The notes: generated by a model from the sequence alone, not told the origin. Positions 4,564 through 28,445 are shown, counted from the stretch's first letter. The stretch: DNA of 32,000 nucleotides from an uncultured delta proteobacterium (GCA_963841475.1 CAWJCT010000002.1:17177-49176), one strand, 5' to 3'. Numbers and translations are program-made.

Positions 4564-5940
4564 TCAATCCTTGCCGGCCTTGCCGCTCCCACCCTTCTCC
4601 TGGGCTTTCTTCGCGGTAACCGTCAGCCGGTGCATCTCTTCCTGCCACTGGCGAAAAGGCGCCCGGGGGATGAGGGCGGTAACCGCGGATTTCCCCTCGC
4701 CGGTGCGGACCTTGAGACGGTCTTTCTCCTGGGCTCCCACCTCCTCCAGGTTCAGGAGGGGTTTGCCGGCCTGATCCCGGAGTTCCAGGACAAAGGTCGA
4801 AGGGCCCTTGGCGGCGGGGCTCGAGGAGGGAACCGATTCGCCTTCCAGCTTCTGGAAATTCCACAGGGCCATCTCCAGGCGCACCGCCGGTTGCTGTGTG
4901 GCCGCCTGGTCCGGCCCGGTGATCTTCCAGGTGTCCTGGTCCTTTCGGGCGGTCCAGGTCTTGCCGGGAGGGCCCCAAACGACCTGGTGGACGGCGAGAA
5001 TCGCCCCGGACCACAAGCGGCGGTCTTTTAAAGTCGCCAGGGTCTTGTCGACCTCGCTGGCCAGGGCAGCCTCCACCAGCACCACGGGCCCGCCCGCCCC
5101 TATCCGGGCGTAAACCGCATCGTCTTTTTTGGTCCCCAACCAGAGGGTTTGGGCCCCGGCGGGCGTCGTAACCGTAATCTCGGTCCGCTGGTCCGGGAGC
5201 AGGCCCAGGGCCGTCAGCTTCTTGGGAGGAGGCTCCAGAAATTTTTTGGCCCGGGCAATATGGATATCGCGCACGAGTTTTTCCACCCGGTCGCCCCGCA
5301 CCCGAAAGTCAGAGCGTCCCACCCAGCGCCAGGTCTGGGGACCGGTCTTCTCCAGGGCCACTTTGGTCTTGGGGGTCTTGACCCTGAGGCCCTTGACCTC
5401 CCCGGCGATAAAGGCCAGCAAGGTCTTGTCCCTGAGGGCCAGGAGTTGGCGGTCCAGGGAATCTTTGCCTCCCGCGCTTATGGTCAGCAGGTGGGGATCG
5501 TGGTCCCTGAGGACGTAATAATTATGGTCTCCCGGGGCCTTGGCGCCGATGGCCAGCTGGTGCGGCTGCCCCAGGGCCGTGAATTTCACCACCAGACCGG
5601 GCTTATCCAGCCCGAAGGGTTTCAGGTTCTTTTCCTCCCCCAGGTCCCGCTCCTCCCGGAGCCGGACCAGGGTGGTCAGCATGGAGTCCACAATGGTCTG
5701 GTCGGCCTTGGTGTCCAGGGGGGCGGTGAGGCGCCAGACCTGGTCTTTTTTGACCAGGCGCACCTCGTCTTTACCCCGGACCAGGCTCAGGTCGCTGATG
5801 TCGGTTTCCTTGAGGTGGAAGACTTTTTTGGCCTGTTCGTCCCGAGCGACCTGTTGTTCCTGGCGCCAGCGCAGGCCGGCATAGGTCCCCACCAGGACCA
5901 GGAAAATCACCACATACGGGATCAGACGCCGGGGAGTCAT
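4564..5940 (-). CDS. DUF4340-like membrane-anchored protein, last gene of the GldG-type ABC operon
   Basis: ATG 5940 overlaps the gldG-like TGA (ATGA). The N-terminus MTPRRLIPYVVIFLVLVGTYAGL is a TM anchor, followed by a ~430-aa soluble region ending in a Lys/Gly tail. Position after GldG matches the usual ATPase-permease-GldG-DUF4340 order (established knowledge; the family call was not verified). The ORF track fuses it with gldG as one 769-aa ORF. Confidence 0.6.
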   Translation of the reverse strand: MTPRRLIPYVVIFLVLVGTYAGLRWRQEQQVARDEQAKKVFHLKETDISDLSLVRGKDEVRLVKKDQVWRLTAPLDTKADQTIVDSMLTTLVRLREERDLGEEKNLKPFGLDKPGLVVKFTALGQPHQLAIGAKAPGDHNYYVLRDHDPHLLTISAGGKDSLDRQLLALRDKTLLAFIAGEVKGLRVKTPKTKVALEKTGPQTWRWVGRSDFRVRGDRVEKLVRDIHIARAKKFLEPPPKKLTALGLLPDQRTEITVTTPAGAQTLWLGTKKDDAVYARIGAGGPVVLVEAALASEVDKTLATLKDRRLWSGAILAVHQVVWGPPGKTWTARKDQDTWKITGPDQAATQQPAVRLEMALWNFQKLEGESVPSSSPAAKGPSTFVLELRDQAGKPLLNLEEVGAQEKDRLKVRTGEGKSAVTALIPRAPFRQWQEEMHRLTVTAKKAQEKGGSGKAGKD

Positions 5941-7378
5941 CGCCGGGCCCGCCGCCGCCGGTAGGCCCAGATGCCGGCTACCAGCATCACCAGGGGAACC
6001 CGACCAGGTAACCAGGAACAACATCCAGGCCTGCCCGCTCTTGAGGGTCAGGAGCTGCGCCTTGCCGGCCCCCCGCACCGTAATCTGCTCCATGGCCCGG
6101 GCCAGGAAGTTCGTGGTGTTCAAAAACAGGTCCCCGTTGCCGAAGAGGTTGAAAAAGCTGTTGGCGGCGAAGTCCGCATCCCCGAAAACCACCAGGTAGG
6201 TCTTCGAGCCTTCCGGGGGCGCCGGCTGCTCCGCTCCTGCCTGGACCTTGCCGTCCTTCGGGGCCGGTTCGCTCTTTTTCGGGGCCAGCTTGATTTCGAC
6301 CTGGGCGGCCACCGTGAAGGGGCCCTGCTTGTCGATCTTGGCATCGAAGGCGGCTTTCTCGGCCTTGATCCACTCTTTACCCAGCTTCTCGTAGCTGGTG
6401 GACATGGTGGTGGCCAGGGGCAGCAGGGAGACGTCCGGATGGTCCTTGCGCAAAATCAAGGGGCGGGCCATGGGATAAATGGTGATCAGAGTTCTTAAAA
6501 TCCGGGTGATCTTGGAGGGGCCGTACTGGGACACCAGGGGCATGACGGCGCTGAGCCCCAGTGATTGACTCACCTGGTTGACGTCCAGGATAAGGCCGTT
6601 ATCCAGGCCGACGCCGTAGCCCGCCAGGAATCCCTGCAGGCCGCCGTCCTCAAAAGCCTCCAGCAGGATCAAGAGCCGGCCGCCCTTTTCCAGGTAAGCC
6701 TTCAGGGCCTGCACCTCGGTGGACATGAGCGGCTTCTTGGGGGCCGCCACGATGACCACCGCAGCATCCGGGGGAACCGCGCCCCGGCTCAGCAGGTTGA
6801 GGGACTCGATTTCGTAGCCCTCGTTGTCCAGGGCCCGCTTCGCCACCTGGAAGCCCTCCGGGCTTGGGGTCATCCAGGGCCCGCTCGCCGTGCCCGGCGA
6901 GGAAATAGACCTTCTTGCGCTCCTTCTTCAAGACCTTGCGCAGGGCATTGGTGATGGCGTTCTCGTCGGTCTGGTCGGCCATCTGGCGCCGCCCCTGGTA
7001 GTCCAGCAGCACGTTGCCGGCAAAGCGATACCCCGCCTGCTGGGCCTTGAGGGGTTCCCGCTCGGGGTCCACAAAGCGGTAGGTGACCTTGGGATTGTGG
7101 TACTCGTAGAGCTGCACAATCTCTTTGGCGCTTTGGCGTTCCGCGGCGCCCTCGGGCAAAAAGACCGTCAGGGTCAGAGGTTCGGTGACCTCTTTGAGCA
7201 GGGCCTTGGTGACCGGCGACAGGGACTGGGTCTGCTCCCGGGTGGTGTCCCAGCGCATGGGGTGCCAGTTGGCCAGCAAGGCCACCAGGCACAGGATGCC
7301 CAGCACCAGCAGCACCGACGCCACGGAGCCGGCGCCGTACAGCACGTTGCGTTTTTGGAATCGATCTCTCCAACTCAC
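5937..7378 (-). CDS. GldG-like auxiliary component of an ABC-type transport system (ABC_transp_aux family); two frame breaks as sequenced
   Basis: N-terminus MSWRDRFQKRNVLYGAGSVASVLLVLGILCLVALLANW (TM), then LTVFLPEG...VDPEREP...KKVYFLAGHGERALDD. After a shift near 6866-6884 it continues PEGFQVAKRALDNEGYEIESLNLL...VVIVAAPKKPL...GGRLLILLE. After a second shift near ~5985 the C-terminal TM VPLVMLVAGIWAYRRRRARR ends at TGA 5939..5937. Confidence 0.75.
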
Positions 7379-15047: not shown

Positions 15048-17841
15048 TTATTCCTCCAGGACCTGGCGGCAGCGGGCGCACACCTGGGGATGGTTGGGAT
15101 CTTCCCCAACCGAGGGAAAGCTGAACCAGCAACGGACGCATTTTTCGCCGGTCGCTTTACTCACCAGCACCACTAAGCCAGGAATCTCGGTCGGAGACCA
15201 TGCCTGCCCCCGAGAGAGATTCGATGGGTTCGACAGTGAATTCGGCCACTTGAGCCAGGGTTTGAAGCTCCGCGTTCTGAGCCTTCAGTTTATCGTACAG
15301 TTCACCCCCTGCCCCCAAAATTACCACGGCCTCCTGGGCCGTGGCAATGACGCTTCTCCTTCCGGGCCTCTTCCAGCCCTCGGTTGATTTCACCCCGCAC
15401 CTTGAGCAGGAAGTCGTACTTGGCCAGCAAGGCCTCGTCGGGAAACCCCGGGGGCGGCTCGGGAAGAGCCGCCCAGGTGGACGCTCTCGGGGCGGCCCGT
15501 GCCAGGAAGGTACTCCCAGATCTCATCGGCGGTAAAAGAGAGGATGGGGGCCATGGCCAGGGTCAGGCCCTGGAGCAGGTCATATAACGTGCTCTGGGCG
15601 CTGCGGCGTTCCCGGGAATCGGCTTTGGAGACGTAGAGGCGGTCTTTCAGGATGTCCAGGTAGATGGAGCTCAGTCTCCACGGCGCAAAACTGGTGCAGG
15701 CGGTGGAAGGCCTGGTGGAATTCGTAATCCTCGTAGGCCCGTTTGACCCGGGCCAGCAACTGGGCCAGCCAGGACAGGGCCAGGCGGTCCAGTTCCTCCC
15801 GCGGCGCCCGGCGTCAGCCAGTGGCTCCCGGGGTCGAAGTCGTAGAGGTTGCCCAGCATGAAGCGGGCGGTGTTGCGGAAGCGCCGGTAGGCGTCGGCCA
15901 GCTGCTTCAGGATGTCCGGAGACAGCCGCACGTCGTCCCGGTAGTCCTCCGCCGCCACCCAGAGCCTGCAGGATCTCGGCGCCGTACTTGTCCATGACTT
16001 CCTGGGGGGCGATGACGTTGCCCAGGGACTTGGACATCTTGCGGCCGTCGCCGTCCACCACGAAGCCGTGGGTCAGCACCCCCTTATAGGGGGCGTGGCC
16101 CCGGGTGCCCACGCAGGTCAGGAGGCTCGAATGAAACCAGCCCCGGTGCTGGTCCGAGCCCTCCAGGTAGAGGTCGGCGGGCAGGGCCAGGGTCCGGGTC
16201 GGGTTCCACCACCGCGGCCCAACTCACCCCGGAATCGAACCAGACGTCCAGGATGTCGGTCTCTTTTTTGAAGTCGGAGGCCGCCGCAGGCGCATACGGT
16301 CCCCGGCGGGCAGCAGGTCGGCGGCCGGGGTGTCGAACCAGAAATCCGCCCCCTCGGTGCGCACCCGCTGGATGATCCCCTGGAGAATTTCCGGGGTGAG
16401 GAGCACCGCGGCCGCACTCCCGGCAGTGAAAGGCCACGATGGGCACGCCCCAGGCCCGCTGCCGGGAGATGCACCAGTCCGGGCGCCGCTCCACCATCTG
16501 GTAGATGCGCTCCCGGCCCCAGCGGGGAATCCAGGTGACCCGGTCGATGGCCGCCAGGGCCTTGCTCCTGAGATCGTTGGCCTCCATGGAGATGAACCAC
16601 TGCTCCGTGGCCCTGAAGATGATGGGCTGCTTGCAGCGCCAGCAGTGGGGGTAGCTGTGGGTCAGGTCCGCGGCCGCCAGGAGTTTGCGGCGCTCTTTGA
16701 GGAGTTCGATAATGCCGGCGTTGGCCTCCCAGACTTTTTGACCGGCAAACTCCGGCACTTCCTGGGTAAACTTGCCGCCGTCGTCCACCGGCGAGTAGGG
16801 CGGAAGATTATACCGGCGGCCGCTGTCATAGTCCTCCTGGCCGTGCCCCGGAGCGATGTGCACCAGGCCGGTGCCCGCCTCCAGGGTGACGTAGTTCGCC
16901 AGGATGACCTGGGAGTCCCGGTCCAGCCAGGGGTGCCGGCAAATGGCGCCTTCCAGGGCACGTCCCTTGACCCGGAAGATCTCTTGGCCCTCAAGCCCCC
17001 AGGAGTTCAGCAGTCCCTCGGCCAGGTCCGCGGCCACCACCAGGACTTCATTGCCGGTATCCACCGCGGCGTATTCCAGGTCCGGGTGCACCGCGATGGC
17101 CAGGTTCGCCGGCAAGGTCCAGGGGGTGGTGGTCCAGATGACCAGGGAGACATTTTCGTGAGCGCCCAACTGCGGCAGATTTTCAGGGGCCTTACCCAGA
17201 GAAAATTTCACGAAAATCGTCGGGGTGCGCTGATTCTCGTATTCCACCTCGGCTTCGGCCAGGGCGGTGCGGCAGGTGGCGCACCAGTGGATGGGCTTTT
17301 TGCTCCGGTGAATGGCGCCGCTGAAGTAAAACTGGCCGTATTCCTCCAGGATTTCCGCCACGTAAGCGGGCCGCATGGTGAGGTAGGGATGGTCCCAGTT
17401 CCCCAGCACCCCCAGGCGCTGGAATTCCCGGCGCTGGATGTCGACGAACTTTTCGGCATAGGCCCGGCAGCGCTGGCGAATCTCCACCTTGGACAGACTG
17501 CCGCCTTTGGCCTTGAGCTCCTTGCCTACCTGGTGCTCGATGGGCAGGCCGTGGCAATCCCAGCCCGGCACGTAGGGGCTGTCGTAGCCCGTCATCTGCC
17601 GGGACTTGACGATGATATCCTTGAGAATCTTGTTTAAGGCATGCCCCAGGTGAATGTGGCCGTTGGCATACGGGGGGCCGTCGTGGAGCACAAACTTGGG
17701 ACGCCCCTTACTTTGGGCCCTGATCAGGCCGTACAGGTCGAGGTCGGCCCAGCGTTCCAGAAACAACGGCTCCCGCCGGGGCAAATCGGCTTTCATGGGA
17801 AAATCGGTGCGGGGCAGGTTAAGGGTCTCTTTGTAATTCAT
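15048..17841 (-). CDS. ileS: isoleucine--tRNA ligase; about ten frame breaks, all in the 3' 1.25 kb
   Basis: ATG 17841 has GGAGG 7 nt upstream: [25 protein letters not shown] motif [57 protein letters not shown] ([10 protein letters not shown]), and a C-terminal Zn motif GEKCVRCW...[11 protein letters not shown] ending at TAA 15050..15048. The frame is clean from 17841 to ~16410. Shifts then occur near ~16405, ~16300, ~16280, ~16205, ~15968, ~15808, ~15670, ~15485, ~15355 and ~15190. Confidence 0.93.
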
Positions 17842-18021
17842 CCAGCAGCCTCCGGAAGACAATTTTATTATGGTATCACATCCTATCCCGGCAAGGAATC
17901 AATAAGACACGGGGGCCCCAGGCCCGAATCCGGGAGCGCCCACCGTCCGGAGCCCGGCAAAAGCAACGGCCGGCGCCCCGGCTACCTTGACCGGAGGCGA
18001 ACCTTTGGGATAAGATGAGGC

Positions 18022-19413: not shown

Positions 19414-20130
19414 ATGGCCAAAGGAGGCAGCATGGCCAACGTTTTTTTAGCGGCAGCTTTGTTATCCAGCATCCTGGCGGTATCGGGGTGCATGGGGGGG
19501 CTTCTTCCCAATCTTGGGGGTTTAGGGGCTTCCCTTGGGGGCTACCCCTCCCAAGGAGGCTACCCTGCCTATGGGGGGGGCCAGCCCTACCCCTATAATC
19601 CCGGGGCCGGCGGGGGCTATGCCCAGCCGGGCCAATCCTATTATCAACCGCAGCCCTACGCTTATTCCGGTTCCGGCAACCCAGAAATTTACTACCAGCC
19701 GACTCCCCAAGCGAGCCCGGGGTATACTGCTCCTTCGCCGGATCGTTGGACCGATCCGCGTCAGTTGCGCCGGCAGGCCCGCATCCAACCAGGACAGGCT
19801 TCCGGGCAATTAACCCCCAGAGAAGCCAGGCGTTTGCAAAGGGAGCAGCGGCGGATCAGGGGTGGGCCCGGACAGATGGGAGCCGATGGCAACCTGAGTA
19901 CTCAAGAACAGGGCCGCCTCAATCGCAGAACACCGGGAAGCAGCCAGAACATCTACGGGCCGGGGCAGAATGGCGTACAACCCGGACCTATGACGCGGTC
20001 CCGGCCCACGAGGGCCCAGCCGCCTGTGGCGCAAGCGCGCCCGGGGGGACAAGCGCAAGCCGAGGTCCAACCTCGAGGTACAGCCCAACCGCGGACCACC
20101 ACTCAGCGGCGGCATGAACAGCCGCAATAA
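19414..20130 (+). CDS. predicted lipoprotein with a Gly/Tyr/Pro/Gln low-complexity N-terminal half and an Arg/Gln-rich repeat C-terminal half
   Basis: Signal plus lipobox: MAKGGSMANVFLAAALLSSILAVSGC (alternative start ATG 19432 after AAGGAGG). This is followed by GGYPSQGGYPAYGGGQPYPYNPGAGGGYAQPGQSYYQPQPYAYSGSGNPEIYYQP. The C-terminal half carries two G.L(T/S)..E...RL..R units (GQLTPREARRLQREQRRI; GNLSTQEQGRLNRR). A terminator follows. Confidence 0.65.
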   Translation: MAKGGSMANVFLAAALLSSILAVSGCMGGLLPNLGGLGASLGGYPSQGGYPAYGGGQPYPYNPGAGGGYAQPGQSYYQPQPYAYSGSGNPEIYYQPTPQASPGYTAPSPDRWTDPRQLRRQARIQPGQASGQLTPREARRLQREQRRIRGGPGQMGADGNLSTQEQGRLNRRTPGSSQNIYGPGQNGVQPGPMTRSRPTRAQPPVAQARPGGQAQAEVQPRGTAQPRTTTQRRHEQPQ

Positions 20131-20313: not shown

Positions 20314-21897
20314 CTATCTGAGAGATTTCGCCTTGTCAAAATCCAGGCGAGCCCGCTCTTCATCGCCTCTCTTCTGATGACACCTGCCGCGCAGTTCATA
20401 GGTCTCGGCCAGTTCAGTATTTAAAGATATGGCTTTGGCGAAGTCATCGAGCGCTTCTTCAAACTTTCTTCTTTCCATGTAGACCGTACCGCGATTCTTA
20501 TAAGCTTTGCCATAGCCGGGATCCAACGTGATCGCCTGATTAAAATCCTGGAGGGCCGAATTAAAATCGTTTCTGGCCAGGAATGCTTCTCCCCGGCCGT
20601 TATAGGTGGCGGCATTGCGCCAATTCAGCGGCAGGGCGTTGCTGAAATCGGTAAGGGCCAGGTCATATTTCTTGGTGCGCACGTAGAGATTGCCCCGGTT
20701 GAGGTAGGCCTCGAGGAGCTTCGGATCCAGATTGATAGCCTTATTATAATCCTCTAAGGCCTGGTCCAACTTACCCTGGAAAGCAAAGAGAAAACCGCGG
20801 TGGCTATAGGCCTTAGCCAGTTTGGGGTCTAACGCGATGGCCCTTTCATAATCCCTGAGGGCCTGGTCATATTCTTTGTTCTCATAAAAAACGAAACCCC
20901 GGTTGCAGTAGGCCTCGGCAAAGCCGGGGTTTATAGAGATAGCCTGGTTGAAATCCGCCATTGCCTGAGACTGCTTATCCAAGCCATCGTAGACCAACCC
21001 CCGGAGATTATAGGCGTTGAAGGAGTTGGTGAGGCTGGCGATGGCCTTGTCCAGGTCTGGGACAGCCTTTTGGTACTCCTTTTTATCTAAATAAGCCCCG
21101 CCCCGATGGATGTAGTAATAACCGGGTTTGGGGTTCAACTTAATAGCTTTGTTCATCAGGACGATTTTTTCATCGGGATCCTTGAGATTTCTGGCTTTTT
21201 GGAAATATTCGGCTGCGGCTGCTTCGGCGGCAGCGCCAGTGGGTGGTGCGGTCTCCTTGGCGCCCTCCGTCCGGCTCGACGGGCGCCTCTCAACCGCCAT
21301 CCAGACCACGCCCCCGGCCACTGTCGCCCCGATCACCAGGCCTAATAGAACCGCAAGTATTTTCCATTTGGGGACCCTCACGGTAATGGCGGCGGTCTCA
21401 TCGGCCGGCGCCACCCGCGGCCTCGGGCGCACCGGCACCTCTTCTTCTTCAGGAGGGGGGGACTTCAGGTGGGGTTCGACCACCTTCTCCCCCTGTTTGG
21501 AGATGATCGACTGGAGGATGCCCACCAGACTGTCCAGATGTTTCTCCAGGGGGGGCGTGAAGGCATCGAGCCAATGCTGGGTGCTGATAAAGTATTCCAG
21601 AGTCTTGGAAGGCAGGACATCATCAATGCGGAAGGGCACTACCGTGACGCCCTTGTTGACCGCCCGCTCAATCTCCCGCTTAATTTGCGGCGAGGCATTG
21701 GAATTGGCCGAAAAGACCAAAATCATGACCTTGCTTTCGTGGATTGCATCGATAATGGATTCCCCCCAATCGCTTCCGGGCATGACATCCCTGGGGGCAA
21801 TCCAGACGCGAATGCCGTTGGCCTCCAGGGAGGCGCAGATGGCGTCCGCCGTGGTCTTGTCCTTGACGGAATAACTGACGAAGACATCGTGTGCCAT
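20314..21897 (-). CDS. TIR domain / single TM helix / nine TPR repeats protein (527 aa from ATG 21897)
   Basis: Intact ORF (track 20314..21903). ATG 21897 has GGAGAAG 6 nt upstream. N-terminal TIR_2-like block DVFVSYSVKDKTTADAICASLEANGIRVWIAPRDVMPGSDWGESIIDAIHESKVMILVFSANSNASPQIKREIERAV. TM helix WKILAVLLGLVIGATVAGGVVWMAV. Nine units follow with an exact 34-aa period (for example EAYCNRGFVFYENKEYDQALRDYERAIALDPKLA). Confidence 0.88.
   Translation of the reverse strand: MAHDVFVSYSVKDKTTADAICASLEANGIRVWIAPRDVMPGSDWGESIIDAIHESKVMILVFSANSNASPQIKREIERAVNKGVTVVPFRIDDVLPSKTLEYFISTQHWLDAFTPPLEKHLDSLVGILQSIISKQGEKVVEPHLKSPPPEEEEVPVRPRPRVAPADETAAITVRVPKWKILAVLLGLVIGATVAGGVVWMAVERRPSSRTEGAKETAPPTGAAAEAAAAEYFQKARNLKDPDEKIVLMNKAIKLNPKPGYYYIHRGGAYLDKKEYQKAVPDLDKAIASLTNSFNAYNLRGLVYDGLDKQSQAMADFNQAISINPGFAEAYCNRGFVFYENKEYDQALRDYERAIALDPKLAKAYSHRGFLFAFQGKLDQALEDYNKAINLDPKLLEAYLNRGNLYVRTKKYDLALTDFSNALPLNWRNAATYNGRGEAFLARNDFNSALQDFNQAITLDPGYGKAYKNRGTVYMERRKFEEALDDFAKAISLNTELAETYELRGRCHQKRGDEERARLDFDKAKSLR
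20320..21222 (-). other. TPR array, about 9 repeats (aa ~228-528)
   Basis: Recurrent (A/T)Y.(N/H)RG..(Y/F).....(Y/F)..A(L/I).D(F/Y)..AI.L(D/N)P... with a 34-aa register from aa ~262 to 528. Confidence 0.9.
21292..21366 (-). other. single transmembrane helix (aa 180-204)
   Basis: 25 uncharged residues are flanked by RVPKWK (N side) and ERRPSSR (C side). Charge flanks do not decide the orientation. Confidence 0.75.
21520..21891 (-). other. TIR domain (aa ~5-128, ORF-track numbering)
   Basis: The pattern FVSYS...D....A..I...L...GI.VW...RD..PG..W...I..AI..S.....V.S.NS..S..I..E.E.A matches bacterial TIR_2. The candidate catalytic Glu is E77 in SPQIKREIERA (by-eye alignment to the S..W...E position). 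Confidence 0.8.
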
Positions 21898-21921
21898 TAT
21901 CACTTCTCCTCAGGTGATTGG

Positions 21922-21997: not shown

Positions 21998-24286
21998 TCA
22001 CAAACCCGAGCGGCGCACCAGATACAAGGGAATGATGCCGGCATGTTTGGGCAGCGGGATCCGCCCCACGTACTCACAGGTAAAGCCCTGGACCCGCTGC
22101 GTGGACGCCAGGGCCGCAAATTGCTGGCTGGCGTACACCTGTCCCGGCGGGGTTATGGGTTCAATGCGGGCCGCCCGGACGATATGGGAGCCGGCGTAGG
22201 CCAACTCCTTGAAGAGCGGCTTTTTGTAGCAGTAAACCGGTCCGGCGTGCAGGGAGATGCGCAGATTGACCTCTTTGGGCAATCCCTTGGCCTGCCAATC
22301 GGTATCGACCACCAGGTCCCGCAACTTGAGGGCGAAATTGCCCCCGTCCTGCACCGAGGCGAAGACGGAATACAGGGCATCACCCCAGGTGTTGGTCAAC
22401 AAGGGCCTCTCGGGGGACTCGGCCACCAACTTATTGATGGCTCCCATAAAATATTCGACGAAGTTCGGGACCTGTTCCTCCATGATCTTACTGGACCCGA
22501 CCACATCGGCGAAAAGCATGGCCCTGATTTCCTCGGTAAAGCCCCGGGGCACGGACGCCACCGCCTCAGCCGGGGCCGCCGCTGGCGGGGTGGCAGCGGC
22601 TGCGGGCCCCAGGGGAGGGGTGTCGGCCAGCAGCCGGTTAAGGTCGATAATCTCAGGCTCCAGACCGTGGGAACGCCAGTGCTGCACCAGGCTGCTGGTG
22701 CCCCCGGGACCATCCCCCGCCCCGCCATCCCATACTACCAGGGGGATCAGTTCGGTATCCAGCATCTTCGTCCGCAGTATTGCCAGGCCATCGAGCAGCA
22801 GATTGGTGTATTCATAGACCATGGCATTCCCGGAAGCCCGGTTCTCGCTGGCAATAATAACCTGGCTGGCCTGCTCGAGCACCGCCTCGAACCGGGAACC
22901 CCAATCGCTCCCGGGGATGAGGTTAACGCTGCCCTTAAGAAAATCCTCCTTAAAGTGCGGGAGGATGATGTTGATCTCCCCTTCTCGTTTCAGCATGGCC
23001 TCGAGGAATAAAATGTCGGAACCGCACGCGGCTGAGGCGAACCCGATCCTGGCATCCACTCGCGCCAGGGTGGCGGCGATCTCTTGATATATCTTCGGGG
23101 CCAAATAATCCGGGAAACGAGGCTTCGGCCGGCCGGGCTGGTCGATCATGTGGCCGGCAAAGACCACCACCCGGGGAATTTGAAAGCAGGCTTCGATCCG
23201 TTGTTTCTGGTCAGGGTCCAGGTCCATCACGGTGAAGAGCAGCCGGGCGTTGCGCCGGGTGGAGGCCAGATCGCCATATCTCTGACCAGCCCCCCGGCCG
23301 GCCTGCGTGTACCACTTGATGGCGTCGCTTATCTCCCCCCGGATCAAGGCGGCTTCGCCCAAAGTGGCCCGAAGCCAATACAACTCCCCCGGATCCCCGG
23401 TTACCCGGGAAAGCTCCTGGAGACATTGCTCCGTGACCCGGTTCGCCAGGGCCGTGGCCTGCTCTTGATCATGTAAGGACCTGGCCAAGGTGGCGGCGTT
23501 GATGCCGGACCAATAGCCCCCGGTCCTCTCATAGGCCGAAGCGTAGGTTTCGTAGGCCAGCCTCCACTCCCTGGTCTTGTCCTTGAGGTCGGTGGCCAAG
23601 TTGGCGAAATCCTTATGGGCCCGGGCCAGGAGCCCCAGGGTCTCCTCATCGCGGTTATCCTCGCCAAACAGCTTCTGGAGCACCTCCAGGGCCTGCTGTA
23701 CCGCCCCGGAGCGCAGCAGCGCCAACGCCAGCAATTGTCGTAAGCGGGTCTCCTGGGGCCAGAGTTTGAGCCCCTCGGCCACGACGTCGTAGGCCAGCAG
23801 CGGCTCTCCCAACCTCATGATGTGCTGGCCGAGGTCCTGATAGAGTTTTGTCGGGAAGGGCCCGGAGCTCGATTTTAAGGTTTGCCAAAGCTCAATGGAT
23901 TTTACCAGGTCGAGGTTGTTCAGATCATCGCCGAGATGCTGCACTGTGGCCAGGTCCCCATAGGCCAGCAAGGTGCAGGCGGGGCCGGATAGGGCCGGAC
24001 GTGCGGGGGGGTCGACGCGGTATCCCAAGGCCAGCATGCCCTGGACGACACCCAGGGAGATTTTCCGATCGTATTCCTTCTCCGATTCCGGCAGGTCGTC
24101 GTAGGGGACGATGCAGGGGTGCTCCTTGAGCAAATCATCGCGGCGCTGCCCGTGGGTCCACCCGTCGGCCAAACGTTGCCGCACCCAATTATCATGGGTA
24201 ATTTCTGCCAACTGCTCCACCAGATCGATTAAATCTTTAGGAACCGCCACCGTGGTGAGATCAGGCGACTTGGGCACGTATGACAT
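21998..24286 (-). CDS. multidomain signalling protein: RyR domain / helical TPR-like (DUF4071-like) region / LOG-SLOG-like Rossmann module / class III nucleotidyl cyclase domain
   Basis: Intact 764-codon ORF (track 21998..24292). ATG 24286 has GGAG with a 6-nt spacer. There is no TM and no signal peptide. Domain evidence is given in the four sub-features. Confidence 0.85.
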   Translation of the reverse strand: MSYVPKSPDLTTVAVPKDLIDLVEQLAEITHDNWVRQRLADGWTHGQRRDDLLKEHPCIVPYDDLPESEKEYDRKISLGVVQGMLALGYRVDPPARPALSGPACTLLAYGDLATVQHLGDDLNNLDLVKSIELWQTLKSSSGPFPTKLYQDLGQHIMRLGEPLLAYDVVAEGLKLWPQETRLRQLLALALLRSGAVQQALEVLQKLFGEDNRDEETLGLLARAHKDFANLATDLKDKTREWRLAYETYASAYERTGGYWSGINAATLARSLHDQEQATALANRVTEQCLQELSRVTGDPGELYWLRATLGEAALIRGEISDAIKWYTQAGRGAGQRYGDLASTRRNARLLFTVMDLDPDQKQRIEACFQIPRVVVFAGHMIDQPGRPKPRFPDYLAPKIYQEIAATLARVDARIGFASAACGSDILFLEAMLKREGEINIILPHFKEDFLKGSVNLIPGSDWGSRFEAVLEQASQVIIASENRASGNAMVYEYTNLLLDGLAILRTKMLDTELIPLVVWDGGAGDGPGGTSSLVQHWRSHGLEPEIIDLNRLLADTPPLGPAAAATPPAAAPAEAVASVPRGFTEEIRAMLFADVVGSSKIMEEQVPNFVEYFMGAINKLVAESPERPLLTNTWGDALYSVFASVQDGGNFALKLRDLVVDTDWQAKGLPKEVNLRISLHAGPVYCYKKPLFKELAYAGSHIVRAARIEPITPPGQVYASQQFAALASTQRVQGFTCEYVGRIPLPKHAGIIPLYLVRRSGL
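22013..22531 (-). other. class III adenylate/guanylate-cyclase-type domain, aa ~588-760
   Basis: IRAMLFADVVGSS (metal Asp D595), TWGDALYSVF (metal Asp D638), NLRISLHAGPVY, and YAGSHIVRAARIEPITPPGQVYASQQF (the G..VN.AaR-like block with Arg R709). Confidence 0.8.
22658..23179 (-). other. LOG/SLOG-like Rossmannoid putative nucleotide-binding module, aa ~372-545
   Basis: A strand-Gly start (IPRVVVFAGHMID), then a Gly/Ser-rich helix start (RIGFASAACGSDILFLEAMLKREGEINIILP), then LIPLVVWDGGAGDGPGGTSSLVQHW. The last block resembles the LOG-family PGG.GT..E motif in position and composition. Confidence 0.5.
23189..23920 (-). other. all-helical TPR-like region, possibly DUF4071 / MAP3K TRAF-binding-like, aa ~125-368
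   Basis: Helical repeats (LRQLLALALLRSGAVQQALEVLQKL; ETLGLLARAHKD; WRLAYETYASAYERTGGYWSGINAATLA; LYWLRATLGEAALIRGEISDAIKWY). The Y.GINAATL motif is recalled from DUF4071-type proteins; this is tentative. Confidence 0.45.
24017..24241 (-). other. RyR (ryanodine-receptor repeat) domain, aa ~18-92
   Basis: LAEITHDNWVRQRLADGWTHGQRRDDLLKEHPCIVPYDDLPESEKEYDRKISLGVVQGMLALGYRV fits the bacterial RyR consensus (H..W...k...GW.yG...d...k.hP.lvpY..Lpe.eKe.DR...). Confidence 0.8.
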
Positions 24287-24410
24287 ACTCATCTCCTGAG
24301 GCGGAGGTCAAAACCGCTTATCGGCAACAGGGCAATGTCCTGCTTTCATCGACTTGAAAGTAAAATGGGCCGGGTAAGGACGCCCCAGTCCGATGGCAAC
24401 TCATCGATCC

Positions 24411-24438
24411 ACAATAGGTCATTTATATTTTTTGTCAA
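24411..24438 (-). promoter_or_regulatory. candidate sigma70-type promoter of the cyclase-TIR gene pair
   Basis: On the minus strand: TTGACA (24438..24433), 16-nt AT-rich spacer, TATTGT (24416..24411). It lies ~125 nt upstream of ATG 24286, inside a markedly AT-rich stretch. Confidence 0.4.
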
Positions 24439-24952: not shown

Positions 24953-25536
24953 ATGGAAAATAATTTGGATAGAGGGTCGGCTGGCCGGGGCCGCTTCCGG
25001 TGGCTCTGGGTGCTGGCCGGCATAGTGCTCCTGGCAGCAGGGGCTTGGGGGCTTTTGCGCCGCCAGCCGCCGCCCCCGCCGCCCAAGGCGGCCACGGCCC
25101 AACCCCCAGGATGGAGGGCCTCTCTCTCACCGAGATTCATGAAGGCGATAAAACGTGGGTCCTGGAGGCCAAGAAGGCGGATTTTAACCCGGACAAAACG
25201 ACCATCAGCATCACCGGGGTCCGGGTGGAATTTTTCGGGCCCGGAGAAGACATCCGGGTGAAGGCCGAGGCGGGGCTGTTTAACACCAAGACCCGGGTCT
25301 TGACCCTGAAGGGGCAGGTGGAGATGCGGCGCGGCGATCTCTGATCCAGACCAGCCTGGCCACCTATATCCCGGAAGAGCGCGCCTTGGTGGGGCCCGAG
25401 GATGGTGGTGATCACGCAACCGGGCCTCAAGGTGGAAGGCAAGGGGATGCGGGTGGAACTGGCCGACAAGAAGCTGGTGATCGCCCAACACCACTTCACC
25501 GAATTGCAGGTTAAGGATTGGAGGGGCAAGCGTTGA
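24953..25536 (+). CDS. lptC: LPS export system protein LptC; three frame breaks as sequenced
   Basis: N-terminal TM anchor MENNLDRGSAGRGRFRWLWVLAGIVLLAAGAWGLL. Then MEGLSLTEIHEGDKTWVLEAKKADFNPDKTTISITGVRVEFFGPGEDIRVKAEAGLFNTKTRVLTLKGQVEM, then IQTSLATYIPEERALVGPE and VVITQPGLKVEGKGMRVELADKKLVIAQHH. This is the LptC beta-jellyroll pattern, and the gene sits directly before lptA/lptB. Shifts lie near ~25105, ~25340 and ~25402. TGA is at 25534-25536. Confidence 0.75.
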
Positions 25537-26163
25537 AACGCCACGGGTTTTTAGTCCTCGCCGGGATTCTGGTGATATTGTGGGCCGGTTCGTCCCTGGC
25601 GTATGGCGCCCCCCCCAAGAAGCCGGGACCGGAAAAAGAGGTCCCCCTGCACATCACCGCCGCCCGCCTGGAAGCGGACCAGACCAAAGGGCTGGTCATC
25701 TTCACCGGTCCGGTGAAGGCCGTGTACGGCGATGCCACGTTATACTCGGATCAGCTGCAGGTCTACTTTAAGGCTAAACCGGCGCCTCCCAAAGGAACCC
25801 CCACGCCCCCCCAGGAAAAGGCGGGGCAGTCGCCCTCTCGGTGATATGGGAGCCGAGAAAATTGACCGCATCGTGGCCAAAGGCAACGTGCGCTTCGTCC
25901 AGGCGGACCGGGTGGCCACCGGGGATCAGGCCATTTACTACAAGGACCGGGATGAGGTAGTGCTGACGGGCAACCCCCAGTTATGGCAGGCCGAAAATAC
26001 CCTGAAAGGGGAACGGATCATCTTCAATCTCAAGACCAAGAAAGTGCTGGTGGAAAGTTCACCCCAACGCCGGGTGGAAGCCCTGCTCTACTCCCAGGGG
26101 GCTGCCGAAGGCAAAGCCAAGCCGCCTCTGAGCCCTAAAGCCCGCAAGGGCCGCCAGCCTTAA
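25533..26163 (+). CDS. lptA: LPS transport periplasmic protein LptA (OstA-like); one frame break as sequenced
   Basis: TTG 25533 overlaps the lptC stop (TTGA), with GGAGGGG 6 nt upstream. Signal peptide LKRHGFLVLAGILVILWAGSSLAYG. Conserved blocks include PLHITAARLEADQTKGLVIFTGPVKAVYGDATLYSDQLQVYF and, after a shift near ~25838, IDRIVAKGNVRFVQADRVATGDQAIYYKDRDEVVLTGNPQLWQAENTLKGERIIFNL. Confidence 0.8.
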
Positions 26164-26955: not shown

Positions 26956-28445
26956 ATGGCCTTAGAAATCAGACAGAGCTTAAAACTAACTCAATCTCTC
27001 ATCATGACCCAGAAATTGCAGCAAGCCATCAAGCTGCTGCAACTTTCCCGTATGGAACTGGTGGGGGAAATTACCCAGGCCCTGGAAACCAACCCGGTCC
27101 TGGAAGATGATCAGTTTGAAGAAGAGCCGGTACCGGGAGAAGAAGAGCTCAGTCTGGGGAATCTATCCCCTGGCGATGGAGCGTCGCCGGAGGAGGCCAA
27201 ACCCGACGGCGAGGCCAAATCCACCACGGAAGACTGGGATTGGGACAGCTTCCTGAAAGATCGGCTCATGCCGCCCCCCATGGGCGAATACGAAGAACGG
27301 GAGGCCCTGTCCTTCGAGTCCCTGAATGCCGAAGAGACCACCCTGAAATCCCACCTCATCTGGCAACTTCGGATGGCCGAACTGGACCAGGAAGGCGACA
27401 ATATCGGAGTGATGATCATCGGCAACCTGGACAAAGACGGCTATTTCCGGTCCACGGCGGAAGAGATCGCCGATGAGATGGGCGGATCGAACCGGCCCGA
27501 GTGGAGCAGGTCCTGGAGATCGTCCAGGGCTTCGACCCTCCGGGGGTGGCCGCCCGGGACCTGAAAGAATGCCTGCGGTTGCAGCTCAAGATCCTGGGCG
27601 TCCAGGACCCCCTGGTGCTCGATATTATCGACCGCCACCTGAACAATCTGGGGAACAAAAATTACCAGGCCATCGCCCGGGACCTGAAGGTGCCCATCGG
27701 CAGAGTGGTGGAGGCCGGCGATCTCATCGCCAACCTGGAGCCCAAGCCCGGCCGGGGTTTCGACTCCGAAGAGGCAGACTACATCAACCCCGACGTTCAC
27801 GTGGAAAAGGTGGGGGACGACTACGTCATCCGTCTGAACGATGACGGCCTGCCCAAGTTGCGGGTTAACTCCTTTTACCTGGAGGCCATGCGAGGTCCCG
27901 ATAAACTCCCGGACTCGGTCAAGAGTTACATCCAGAAACACCTGGATAACGCCCTGTGGTTTATTCGCAGCATCCACCAGCGGCAAAAGACCCTGTACCG
28001 GGTGACCGAAAGTATCGTGCGTTTCCAGAGGGAGTTTCTGGACCACGGCCTGTCCCAGCTGAAACCCCTGACCCTGCGCCAGGTGGCGGAAGACGTCCAG
28101 ATGCACGAATCCACCATCAGCCGGGTCACCACCAACAAGTATGTGTATACCCCCCAGGGAGTCTTTAACCTCAAGTTCTTCTTCAACAGCGCCATTAACA
28201 TGTCTTTGGGGGAACAGATCGCCTCGGAAAGCGTCAAGGAAAAGATCCGCCAGCTCGTAGCCGGCGAGAACCCCGAGAACCCTCTGAGCGATCAGGAGAT
28301 TGCCGATAACCTGCGCCGCCAGGATGTGATCATTGCCCGGCGCACCGTGGCTAAATATCGAGGTATGCTGGGGGTGCTACCCTCCAGTAAACGCAAGAAA
28401 CCCGGGTACTTACCCAAGAGCCAGCCAGAAAATCACGCCTCTTGA
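26956..28445 (+). CDS. rpoN: RNA polymerase sigma-54 factor; one frame break as sequenced
   Basis: Region I MALEIRQSLKLTQSLIMTQKLQQAIKLLQLSRMEL, an acidic linker, then after a shift near ~27480 VEQVLEIVQGFDPPGVAARDLKECLRLQL. The HTH is LKPLTLRQVAEDVQMHESTISRVTTNKY, and the RpoN box is ARRTVAKYR. Confidence 0.93.

Follow-up and report, generated by a model that had tools for sequence, protein, structure and literature searches.

Among described bacterial systems, the Thoeris systems stand closest to the locus considered here. Their common logic leads from a signal made by a TIR protein to a sensor and then to an enzyme on one chain, and the gene for a TIR with a catalytic-type Glu lies beside the partner gene. 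In type VIII Thoeris, the TIR protein ThsB makes canonical cyclic ADP-ribose (cADPR) and is paired with ThsI, described as 'CMP hydrolase and TPR' (tetratricopeptide repeat), and in the type I effector a SLOG domain is the sensor of 3'cADPR, according to a Thoeris survey (Yirmiya et al., bioRxiv 10.64898/2025.12.03.692087). We analyzed a stretch of 32,000 nucleotides from an uncultured delta proteobacterium (GCA_963841475.1, CAWJCT010000002.1:17177-49176; hereafter the window), in which a gene at 21998..24292 encodes a protein that joins a RyR domain, a TPR-S solenoid, a SLOG-like domain and a class III nucleotidyl cyclase, and adjoins a TIR gene, so that it shares the second of these Thoeris features and would, if one of its candidate sensors receives the TIR signal, share the first. 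The protein, referred to below as the target, is probably a soluble, homodimeric, signal-converting enzyme of a TIR-based, Thoeris-like signaling module. On balance we lean toward a relay: an ADP-ribose signal made by the TIR protein would turn on the synthesis of a cyclic mononucleotide (cNMP).

The likeness to type VIII Thoeris lies in a TIR gene that adjoins a gene joining a TPR scaffold to a Rossmannoid nucleotide-handling domain. In ThsI, which is known here by its description, the Rossmannoid domain is a CMP hydrolase whereas that of the target is SLOG-like, and the target is extended by a RyR domain at its N-terminus and a class III cyclase at its C-terminus. The text of the survey and the accessible part of its supplements contain neither a cyclase nor a RyR effector (10.64898/2025.12.03.692087). 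The target also resembles ThsA (SIR2–SLOG, type I Thoeris), in which a SLOG-fold receptor of a cADPR isomer controls an enzymatic output on the same chain. The output of ThsA is an NAD+-depleting SIR2 domain whereas that of the target is a cyclase, and the SLOG domain of the target is detectable by fold only, with no match to a sequence family. No killing or growth-arrest domain of the Thoeris type (nuclease, NADase, pore or protease) was found in the target with Pfam, leaving the cyclase as its sole output. The target differs from Pycsar systems in having no PADLOC Pycsar match and no adjacent cNMP-binding effector.

The gene and the modules of its product are arranged as follows; pLDDT denotes the predicted local distance difference test of the AlphaFold2 models.

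21998..24292, minus strand: target gene (RyR–TPR-S–SLOG-like–cyclase, 764 aa), from the list of open reading frames (ORFs)
24011..24280, minus strand: RyR (R12-type) domain, aa 5-94, by Pfam PF02026, with a predicted ADP-ribose-type nucleotide site (H33, W36, H58, D75)
23957..24007, minus strand: disordered linker, aa 96-112, by pLDDT < 50 in the full-length model
23192..23956, minus strand: 14-helix TPR-like solenoid, aa 113-367, by the helix map of the full-length model
23483-23782, minus strand: Pfam TPR-S (PF20308) within the solenoid, aa 171-270
22622..23179, minus strand: divergent SLOG-like Rossmannoid domain, aa 372-557, by AlphaFold2 and Foldseek
22559..22621, minus strand: Pro/Ala-rich flexible linker, aa 558-578, by sequence and by pLDDT < 50 for aa 563-578
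22010..22537, minus strand: class III nucleotidyl cyclase, aa 586-761, by PF00211, PDB profile and Foldseek

A first-pass annotation of the window, made from the sequence alone, had proposed four modules in one soluble polypeptide, and all four calls survived testing by Pfam, PDB profile, structural models and Foldseek. Public collections contain a protein of 762 aa (P0001) that is 100% identical to the target. The full-length AlphaFold2 model was built with 30 relatives as input, the number over which residue conservation was likewise counted, and reached a pLDDT of 86.1 and a predicted template modeling score (pTM) of 0.80. Its boundaries placed the RyR domain at residues 9-95, a disordered linker at 96-112, the 14-helix solenoid at 113-367, the beta-alpha domain at 374-557, a disordered Pro/Ala linker at 563-578, and the cyclase at 586-761. 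The Pro/Ala linker that had been read from the sequence is thus real, being disordered in the model over residues 563-578 (pLDDT < 50). Pfam covers three of the four modules (RyR, TPR-S and Guanylate_cyc), and NCBIfam gave generic TPR matches only, all sub-threshold.

The evidence that ties the target to TIR signaling comes from its genomic context, the most informative part of which, a conserved TIR neighbor, was overlooked in the first-pass annotation. The partner gene is the next one on the target strand, 94 nt downstream.

20314..21903, minus strand: TIR–transmembrane (TM)–TPR partner gene, 529 aa, by Pfam TIR_2 and TPR families and by PADLOC TIR and ThsB-like models
21556-21885, minus strand: TIR domain of the partner, aa 7-116, by Pfam TIR_2 (85 bits)
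21292-21360, minus strand: hydrophobic TM-like segment of the partner, aa 182-204, one stretch, WKILAVLLGLVIGATVAGGVVWMAV

The C-terminal part of the partner (aa ~240-529) contains eight TPRs. The hydrophobic stretch was also found in the orthologous partners at six related loci (L004, L005, L007, L008, L024 and L073). If this stretch does span the membrane as a helix, the TPRs would lie in the periplasm and the TIR domain in the cytoplasm, a topology like that of Toll-like receptors.

To what extent the linkage holds elsewhere was determined from a sample of 83 related loci, with counts uncorrected for shared ancestry. An iterative TIR profile identified 52 ORFs in these loci; the number of matches had jumped from 14 to 49, and profile drift was ruled out as the cause since an independent Pfam scan confirmed 52/52 as TIR_2. 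A TIR gene was present within 8 kb of the homolog at 42/83 loci and within 700 bp at 35/83. When the sample was restricted to loci flanked by 3 kb or more on each side, the frequency was 34/56, or 34/44 outside the cyanobacteria. The linked loci come from six phyla: Desulfobacterota (8/9 loci with a TIR gene), Acidobacteriota (25/33), Verrucomicrobiota (4/13), Bipolaricaulia (1/1), Spirochaetota (1/1) and Methylomirabilia (1/1). In Cyanobacteria the count was 0/19, with no TIR gene found within 8 kb of homologs with or without a RyR domain (for example L026, Calothrix sp. NIES-2100, AP018178). The RyR domain itself co-occurs with the TIR gene in the sample, 34/50 RyR-bearing loci having a TIR gene compared to 0/6 without RyR (Fisher p = 0.002, phylogeny uncorrected).

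The partners differ in architecture, and include TIR–TM–TPR proteins, TIR-X proteins of ~500 or 620 aa, TIR–WD40 proteins of ~1,400 aa, and TIR–nSTAND1–WD40 proteins; a separate nSTAND1–TPR gene is present at some loci. From lineage to lineage the partner is placed differently, lies on one strand or the other and carries different C-terminal domains, a pattern that argues that the linkage was selected repeatedly rather than kept as inherited synteny. A Glu in an S..W...E context, which we take to be the catalytic position of TIR NADases, is invariant in 52/52 partner TIRs, including that of the window. In an unbiased clustering of 647 neighbor ORFs, the clusters of TIR, STAND and repeat proteins were alone in being function-specific and recurring across phyla. 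The second-largest cluster was dismissed as a functional partner, as it consists of generic ABC ATPases (LptB in this lineage) whose presence reflects chance or synteny. No cluster was confined to the cyanobacterial loci, and the partners of the cyanobacterial members, if any, must be encoded elsewhere.

At the Bipolaricaulia locus (L010:3012-15112) the gene order is TIR–nSTAND1–WD40, homolog, SLOG(LSDAT)–SLATT, TIR and TIR. The gene directly after the homolog encodes an LSDAT-type SLOG domain together with DUF4231 and SLATT membrane-effector domains, the clearest context in the set that resembles a conflict system. Two further arrangements were observed in Acidobacteriota. Eight loci (for example L017:10521-12034) carry, just downstream of the homolog, a conserved gene pair on the opposite strand, encoding a protein of ~146 aa without a Pfam match and one of ~350 aa with sigma-70 region 2; these could be a sigma/anti-sigma pair. 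At three loci (L033, 10375-11409; L035; L043), an O-methyltransferase gene (Methyltransf_2 plus dimerization domain) lies between the homolog and the TIR gene, and its product might modify the signal molecule.

The architecture had been described as unusual in the first-pass annotation, but it is common. A protein search returned 1,675 relatives at E <= 1e-5; the listed ones include over 100 full-length proteins with identities of 47-100%. In a scan of one genome per species, relatives were present in 417 genomes. When 1.84 billion representative proteins were searched with a profile built from the SLOG-like module alone, the matches comprised 4,575 clusters at E <= 1e-3, of which 1,018 reached E <= 1e-30, the clusters being defined at 50% identity. 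The closest relatives are found in Desulfobacterota (82-92% identity), so that the window probably derives from a metagenome-assembled genome of that phylum, and others in Acidobacteriota, Cyanobacteria, Verrucomicrobiota, Bipolaricaulia, Spirochaetota and Methylomirabilia, with the family concentrated in Acidobacteriota, Cyanobacteria, Verrucomicrobiota and Desulfobacterota. As to whether this might be a widespread family that is already characterized, the family is widespread and a characterization was not found in the literature. A published account of TPR-S with SLOG, or of SLOG with RyR, cyclase or TPR, was not found either. The TPR-S–SLOG–cyclase triad is undescribed in the literature searched, and Burroughs et al. 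2015 and Burroughs & Aravind 2020 may depict it; in the papers of the Aravind group that we examined, RyR and TPR-S are not mentioned, and in one of them the only TPR is that of an unrelated TPR–GreA/B–PIN system. The domain families are all known. We found no description of a cyclase as the output, of a host RyR domain acting in this way, or of the triad as a family.

We used home-made domain hidden Markov models to score the best 150 representatives from the search with the SLOG-like module. Ninety of these are TPR-S–SLOG–cyclase proteins and 31 are RyR–TPR-S–SLOG–cyclase proteins; the rest are fragments, four of which bear RyR without a cyclase. These counts support a constant core, with TPR-S–SLOG–cyclase as an obligate triad and RyR as an optional occupant of an N-terminal slot. 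Other occupants of the slot are GAF (P0178), a cNMP-binding domain (P0224), an nSTAND1 NTPase (P0207), and a cyclase with a STAND/NB-ARC-type NTPase (P0185). Because GAF and cNMP-binding domains are classic small-molecule inputs of cyclases, their occupancy of the slot speaks for an input function of RyR as well, and the variant with a cNMP-binding domain suggests feedback by the cyclase's own product. The fusions P0207 (nSTAND1–TPR-S–SLOG–cyclase) and P0185 (cyclase–STAND–TPR-S–SLOG–cyclase) bring in the same class of NTPase as is fused to neighboring TIRs. One relative, P0210, has ~500 extra C-terminal residues with TPRs.

The lack of TIR neighbors at the 19 cyanobacterial loci would also be expected if the core were a general physiological second-messenger enzyme, one that responds to a cellular nucleotide or a metabolite of the NAD pool and adjusts cAMP or cGMP levels in ordinary regulation, with the TIR neighbors being secondary or lineage-specific. 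The very large size of the family is in keeping with such a role, as are the variants with N-terminal GAF and cNMP-binding domains, which resemble ordinary regulated cyclases, the housekeeping context and missing PADLOC match of the target, and the sensing of plain ADP by the R12 domain of animal RyR1. We nevertheless consider this unlikely, given that TIR adjacency recurs in six phyla in differing arrangements, that members are fused to nSTAND1 and NB-ARC-type NTPases, and that the Bipolaricaulia locus combines multiple TIR genes with a SLOG–SLATT gene. The Thoeris survey, moreover, describes the TPR of ThsI, taken here as TPR-S, only in the context of TIR signaling (10.64898/2025.12.03.692087).

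A RyR segment near the N-terminus had been called from motifs alone, and PF02026 matches residues 5-94 of the target at 86.9 bits (cutoff 27.4), spanning profile positions 1-90 of 91. RyR repeats in the PDB match the target domain at E 1e-27 to 1e-55, among them 3nrt (E 1.4e-27), 6uag and RyR1-3. It is no longer accurate to say that bacterial RyR domains lack a known function, as phage RyR proteins bind or cleave 2'cADPR/3'cADPR and the ligand residues are kept in the target. The phage RyR-domain protein RyDEP (PF02026) is a homodimer that binds and cleaves 2'/3'cADPR; its ligand residues are H75, W78, H100 and D117, conserved across PF02026 according to the authors, with H75/D117 as the catalytic dyad (Lopez Rivera et al., bioRxiv 2026, PMC13232231). 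Compared by published positions, H33, W36, H58 and D75 of the target have the same spacing, at a constant offset of 42. Among relatives, H33 is kept in 30/30, W36 in 30/30, H58 in 29/30 and D75 in 27/30. In an ungapped alignment with RyR1, W36 lies opposite W882, which stacks on adenine, and H58 opposite H904, which contacts the phosphate of ADP/ATP. From this sequence comparison, the RyR domain of the target is predicted to contain a binding site for ADP-ribose-type nucleotides.

The target RyR domain shares with RyDEP and the sponge proteins the PF02026 family, a single repeat that probably homodimerizes in the target as well, and four ligand residues with identical spacing. Those proteins are small viral anti-defense proteins, whereas the target domain is host-encoded, fused to a sensor and a cyclase, and located beside a TIR generator. 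Repeat12 of animal RyR (R12/RY12) has a homologous fold; it differs in being a tandem pseudo-dimer within a Ca2+ channel of 5,000 residues, and its demonstrated ligand to date is ADP/ATP, alone or together with dantrolene, rather than a cADPR isomer. A single repeat, as in the target, must pair with a second copy to form an R12-like fold, making a homodimer probable. As phage RyR proteins bind 2'/3'cADPR, the new knowledge of RyR domains points at TIR-made molecules. We put forward tentatively, as a possibility short of probable, that the host RyR domain is the physiological receptor of a TIR-made cADPR isomer and switches on the cyclase.

The same residues raise the question of whether the RyR domain might act as a built-in signal terminator, one that hydrolyzes the TIR-made cADPR isomer as a RyDEP-like glycosidase, or sequesters it, and so sets or resets a threshold, with TPR-S–SLOG–cyclase reporting or regulating removal of the signal. 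The RyDEP dyad H75/D117 has counterparts in H33 (30/30) and D75 (27/30), RyR is an optional add-on (31/150 representatives with all four modules), and it co-occurs with TIR neighbors (34/50 compared to 0/6, at the Fisher p of 0.002 that is uncorrected for phylogeny). When eight RyDEP homologs were assayed, 6/8 bound signals, 0/8 cleaved them, and two were high-affinity sponges (PMC13232231); since none cleaved despite high sequence conservation, conservation of the RyR residues is no predictor of catalysis. The terminator role would in addition leave the universally conserved cyclase unexplained. We regard it as quite unlikely, while noting that it is compatible with a relay to the cyclase.

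The helical region with its Y.GINAATL motif, read at first pass as TPR-like, proved real in that the model has 14 helices there, but it should not be viewed as a spacer, since it belongs to a defined family that is probably a sensor. Pfam TPR-S ('Tetratricopeptide Repeats-Sensor', PF20308) matches residues 171-270 of the target at 66.4 bits (cutoff 27.6) and was found in 10/10 representatives of the core family scanned singly. The residues N265, A266, A267 and T268 of the motif are invariant in the 30 relatives, and in the full-length model the solenoid joins the SLOG-like domain without a linker. The TPR of ThsI is a likely cADPR sensor according to Sorek's group, and its role in TIR signaling was predicted by Aravind's group (10.64898/2025.12.03.692087). 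The identification of the ThsI TPR with the Pfam TPR-S family is made in the present analysis, from its description, and by this analogy the TPR-S of the target is probably a sensor.

A further match, to MAP3K_TRAF_bd (PF13281), covers residues 180-316 of the target at 22.4 bits, just under the cutoff, and is recorded for many relatives. The match suggests a likeness to the 'TRAFs-binding' TPR region of ASK-family MAP3K proteins, which differs in residing in a eukaryotic kinase, without SLOG, cyclase or TIR partner. Burroughs and Aravind are said to have proposed, in 2020, a bacterial TPR-S scaffold as the ancestor of the MAP3K TRAFs-binding region.

Residues ~350-560 of the target had no match in Pfam, NCBIfam or PADLOC at E <= 1, which sets this module apart from the described families LSDAT, LOG, DprA and YpsA, and a sequence profile of the family found nothing in the PDB at E below 1.7. 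The assignment to SLOG was therefore made by fold comparison. An AlphaFold2 model of residues 335-565 is beta-alpha, with pLDDT 87.2 and pTM 0.86. Foldseek gave six matches in the PDB at E <= 1e-3, these being YpsA, DprA (four chains) and ShosA, of which the best was YpsA 2nx2 (E 7e-6, probability 1.0). Weaker matches after ShosA were the Moco carrier protein, TM1055 and LOG; ThsA was absent among the 50 Foldseek matches listed. We take YpsA, DprA, the Moco carrier protein and LOG to be members of the SLOG superfamily and ShosA to be DprA-like. All classifiable significant matches are thus SLOG proteins, in agreement with the Rossmann-like, SLOG-like reading of residues 372-545 made at first pass, and neither the model nor Foldseek pointed to an unrelated fold such as a receiver or flavodoxin. 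As modeled, the module is a new, sequence-divergent SLOG-like family.

Loops after strands are the usual ligand site of Rossmannoid folds, and in the target family these loops contain conserved polar residues: G380-H-M-x-D384...R388...R392, S420-A-A-C-G-x-D426, E431, E439, W464, R467, Y495, N497 and W521-D-G...D527...G531-T532. The invariant polar residues in the loops are G380-H-M-x-D384, R388, R392, D426, E431, E439, R467, N497, D527 and T532. The suggested resemblance to the LOG motif PGG.GT..E was borne out only in part: P529-G-G-T532 is present, without the second Gly and without the conserved Glu of PGGxGTxxE, and the loop after strand 1 reads G-H-M-x-D...R...R where LOG has GGGxxG. Because the second Gly and the catalytic Glu are absent, the module is not a LOG enzyme.

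The charged residues are relevant to the possibility that the SLOG-like domain is itself the effector, a LOG- or DrHyd-like nucleotide N-glycosidase activated through TPR-S, with the cyclase-like domain degenerate and serving in dimerization or regulation only. It would then be analogous to the CMP-hydrolase domain of ThsI, where a TPR of this kind accompanies a Rossmannoid nucleotide hydrolase; in the target family, many invariant charged residues are located at C-terminal strand ends (H381, D384, R388, R392, D426, E431, E439, R467 and D527), and the cyclase is without the canonical Asn and specificity pair. We find this very unlikely, as the motif PGGxGTxxE is reduced to PGGT with no conserved Glu and the best fold matches are YpsA and DprA rather than LOG or DrHyd enzymes; YpsA and DprA are not known to be hydrolases. 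The cyclase, for its part, retains the two Asp residues that bind metal as well as the Arg, and no other part of the protein is as well conserved.

The cyclase segment, called earlier by motif, was confirmed by profile and by Foldseek. The Pfam match to PF00211 (Guanylate_cyc) at residues 591-748 is marginal, at 23.1 bits compared to a cutoff of 21.9. A profile of the cyclase family, in contrast, matched 3mr7 in the PDB at E 3.6e-8 and the beta subunit of soluble guanylyl cyclase (sGC, 3et6) at E 8e-6, and the modeled domain gave a Foldseek E of 1.6e-8 with TM-scores of 0.74-0.80. The cyclase is the most conserved module, with column identity averaging 68% across phyla. Catalytic positions were assigned by alignment to sGC 3et6 and counted over the 30 relatives. 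The metal-binding Asp residues are D596 (30/30) and D638 (30/30), and the transition-state Arg is R709 (29/30). At the Lys/Glu specificity position the target has N634 (Asn in 26/30), and the second specificity position, A698, is variable, so that the canonical Lys/Asp (adenylyl) or Glu/Cys (guanylyl) pair is absent. The position of the transition-state Asn is V705 in the target, and S, V, T or I in 29/30 and N in 1/30. An Asn at the Lys position has a precedent in Rv1900c of M. tuberculosis (1ybt, among the profile matches). As judged from its residues, the cyclase is probably active, with a substrate that cannot be predicted. Its likeness to GAF-regulated class III cyclases lies in the class III fold, in both Asp residues and the Arg, and in an N-terminal sensor over a C-terminal cyclase. 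It differs from them and from Pycsar PycC at the base positions, which are Asn634 and a variable residue, and at the Asn position, which is S, V or T in the target family.

The pairing of a cyclase gene with a TIR gene is the layout of Pycsar, and it could therefore be asked whether the signal flows in reverse, with the cyclase upstream and its cNMP switching on the TIR partner as an NAD+-depleting effector. The Thoeris survey names Pycsar among the contexts of NAD+-depleting TIR effectors (10.64898/2025.12.03.692087). We found no cNMP-binding domain in the TIR partner of the window (Pfam, E up to 1, best 25 of 32 families), in any of six partners that were scanned one by one, or among the 25 most frequent families across the 52 partners, and no PADLOC Pycsar model matched. 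The partners instead carry sensor-type repeats and STAND NTPases, typical of upstream detectors. Such a reversal appears to us highly improbable.

The new evidence favors the idea, already raised in the first-pass annotation, of signal conversion by a nucleotide sensor that drives a cyclase. In the relay that we propose, the TIR partner would detect a cue through its TPR, WD40 or nSTAND1 sensor modules, the partner in the window perhaps being a receptor whose TPRs face the periplasm and whose TIR domain lies in the cytoplasm. The activated TIR would convert NAD+ to an ADP-ribose-derived signal, such as a cADPR isomer, and the RyR domain, the rigid TPR-S–SLOG unit or both would bind it. Class III cyclases need a head-to-tail dimer for catalysis, and binding could rearrange the target dimer such that its two cyclase domains, on the flexible Pro/Ala tether, meet head-to-tail. 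The output would be a cyclic mononucleotide acting on receptors encoded elsewhere, its base being left unpredicted because the specificity residues are non-canonical. The net result would be a two-tier second-messenger relay from an NAD-derived signal to a cNMP, with a role in defense or in other signaling.

Several observations weigh against this relay. No PADLOC model matched the target protein, and the neighbors in the window are leuS, lptA/B, rpoN, hpf, rapZ and transport genes, not a defense island. The 0/19 count in Cyanobacteria means that the TIR link is not universal, or acts in trans, and the counts from the 83 loci include whatever is due to shared ancestry. Among the 647 neighbor ORFs, neither a recurrent cNMP receptor nor a recurrent toxic effector was found. 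The non-canonical transition-state Asn position and base-specifying pair make the activity and product of the cyclase uncertain. Three candidate sensors (RyR, TPR-S and SLOG-like) in one chain exceed what the model calls for, and the direction in which the signal flows is one that we infer. Finally, no description of or experiment on the target or its relatives was found in the literature.

If the relay is correct, bacterial TIR signaling does not always end at a suicide effector but can feed into the network of cyclic mononucleotides, which would connect the two largest families of nucleotide alarm signals in a two-tier immune or stress messenger cascade that has not been described for any Thoeris type. 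It would also represent the first cellular, non-viral signaling of the cADPR type through a RyR-repeat domain, and would give bacterial RyR, known so far from structural-genomics entries and, since 2026, from phage counter-defense, a host-side function next to TIR enzymes, the class by which cADPR isomers are made. Whether animal RyR R12 is a direct target of cADPR is an old open question, for which a soluble domain of 100 residues that has the same ligand residues and a built-in enzymatic read-out would be a convenient test. The genomes sequenced over-represent Pseudomonadota and Bacillota, and the test systems of the Thoeris survey were chosen near E. coli or B. subtilis, as its authors state (10.64898/2025.12.03.692087); the family may have been overlooked so far because of this bias and choice.

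Sites flanking the gene pair were located by consensus scan. They are suggestive only, as the number of such sites in the region is not above that of shuffled controls.

24411..24438, minus strand: promoter-like site, TTGACA, 16-nt spacer, TATTGT (10/12 in the consensus scan), ~120 nt upstream of the start codon
20200..20222, minus strand: terminator-like hairpin and T-run after the TIR gene

No terminator-like site was found by consensus scan or by reading of the sequence in the 94-nt gap between the target and the TIR gene. The promoter-like site upstream, the lack of a terminator-like site between the genes and the hairpin after the TIR gene together suggest a two-gene operon.

Elsewhere in the window, a 769-aa ORF at 4564-6873 was considered as a paralog of the target and rejected, being an unrelated ABC-transport auxiliary protein. 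The genes leuS (15390-17862, minus strand), lptA (25518-26163, plus strand) and rpoN (26956-28445, plus strand) are each split into two overlapping ORFs, most likely as a result of indel errors in a long-read metagenome assembly and not because they are pseudogenes; the ORF of the target is intact. An ORF of 238 aa on the plus strand (19414-20130), without a Pfam match, encodes a lipoprotein-like N-terminus (…LAVSGC) followed by a low-complexity body extremely rich in Gly, Pro, Gln and Tyr; it lies on the strand opposite to the TIR gene, immediately past the terminator-like site of the latter.

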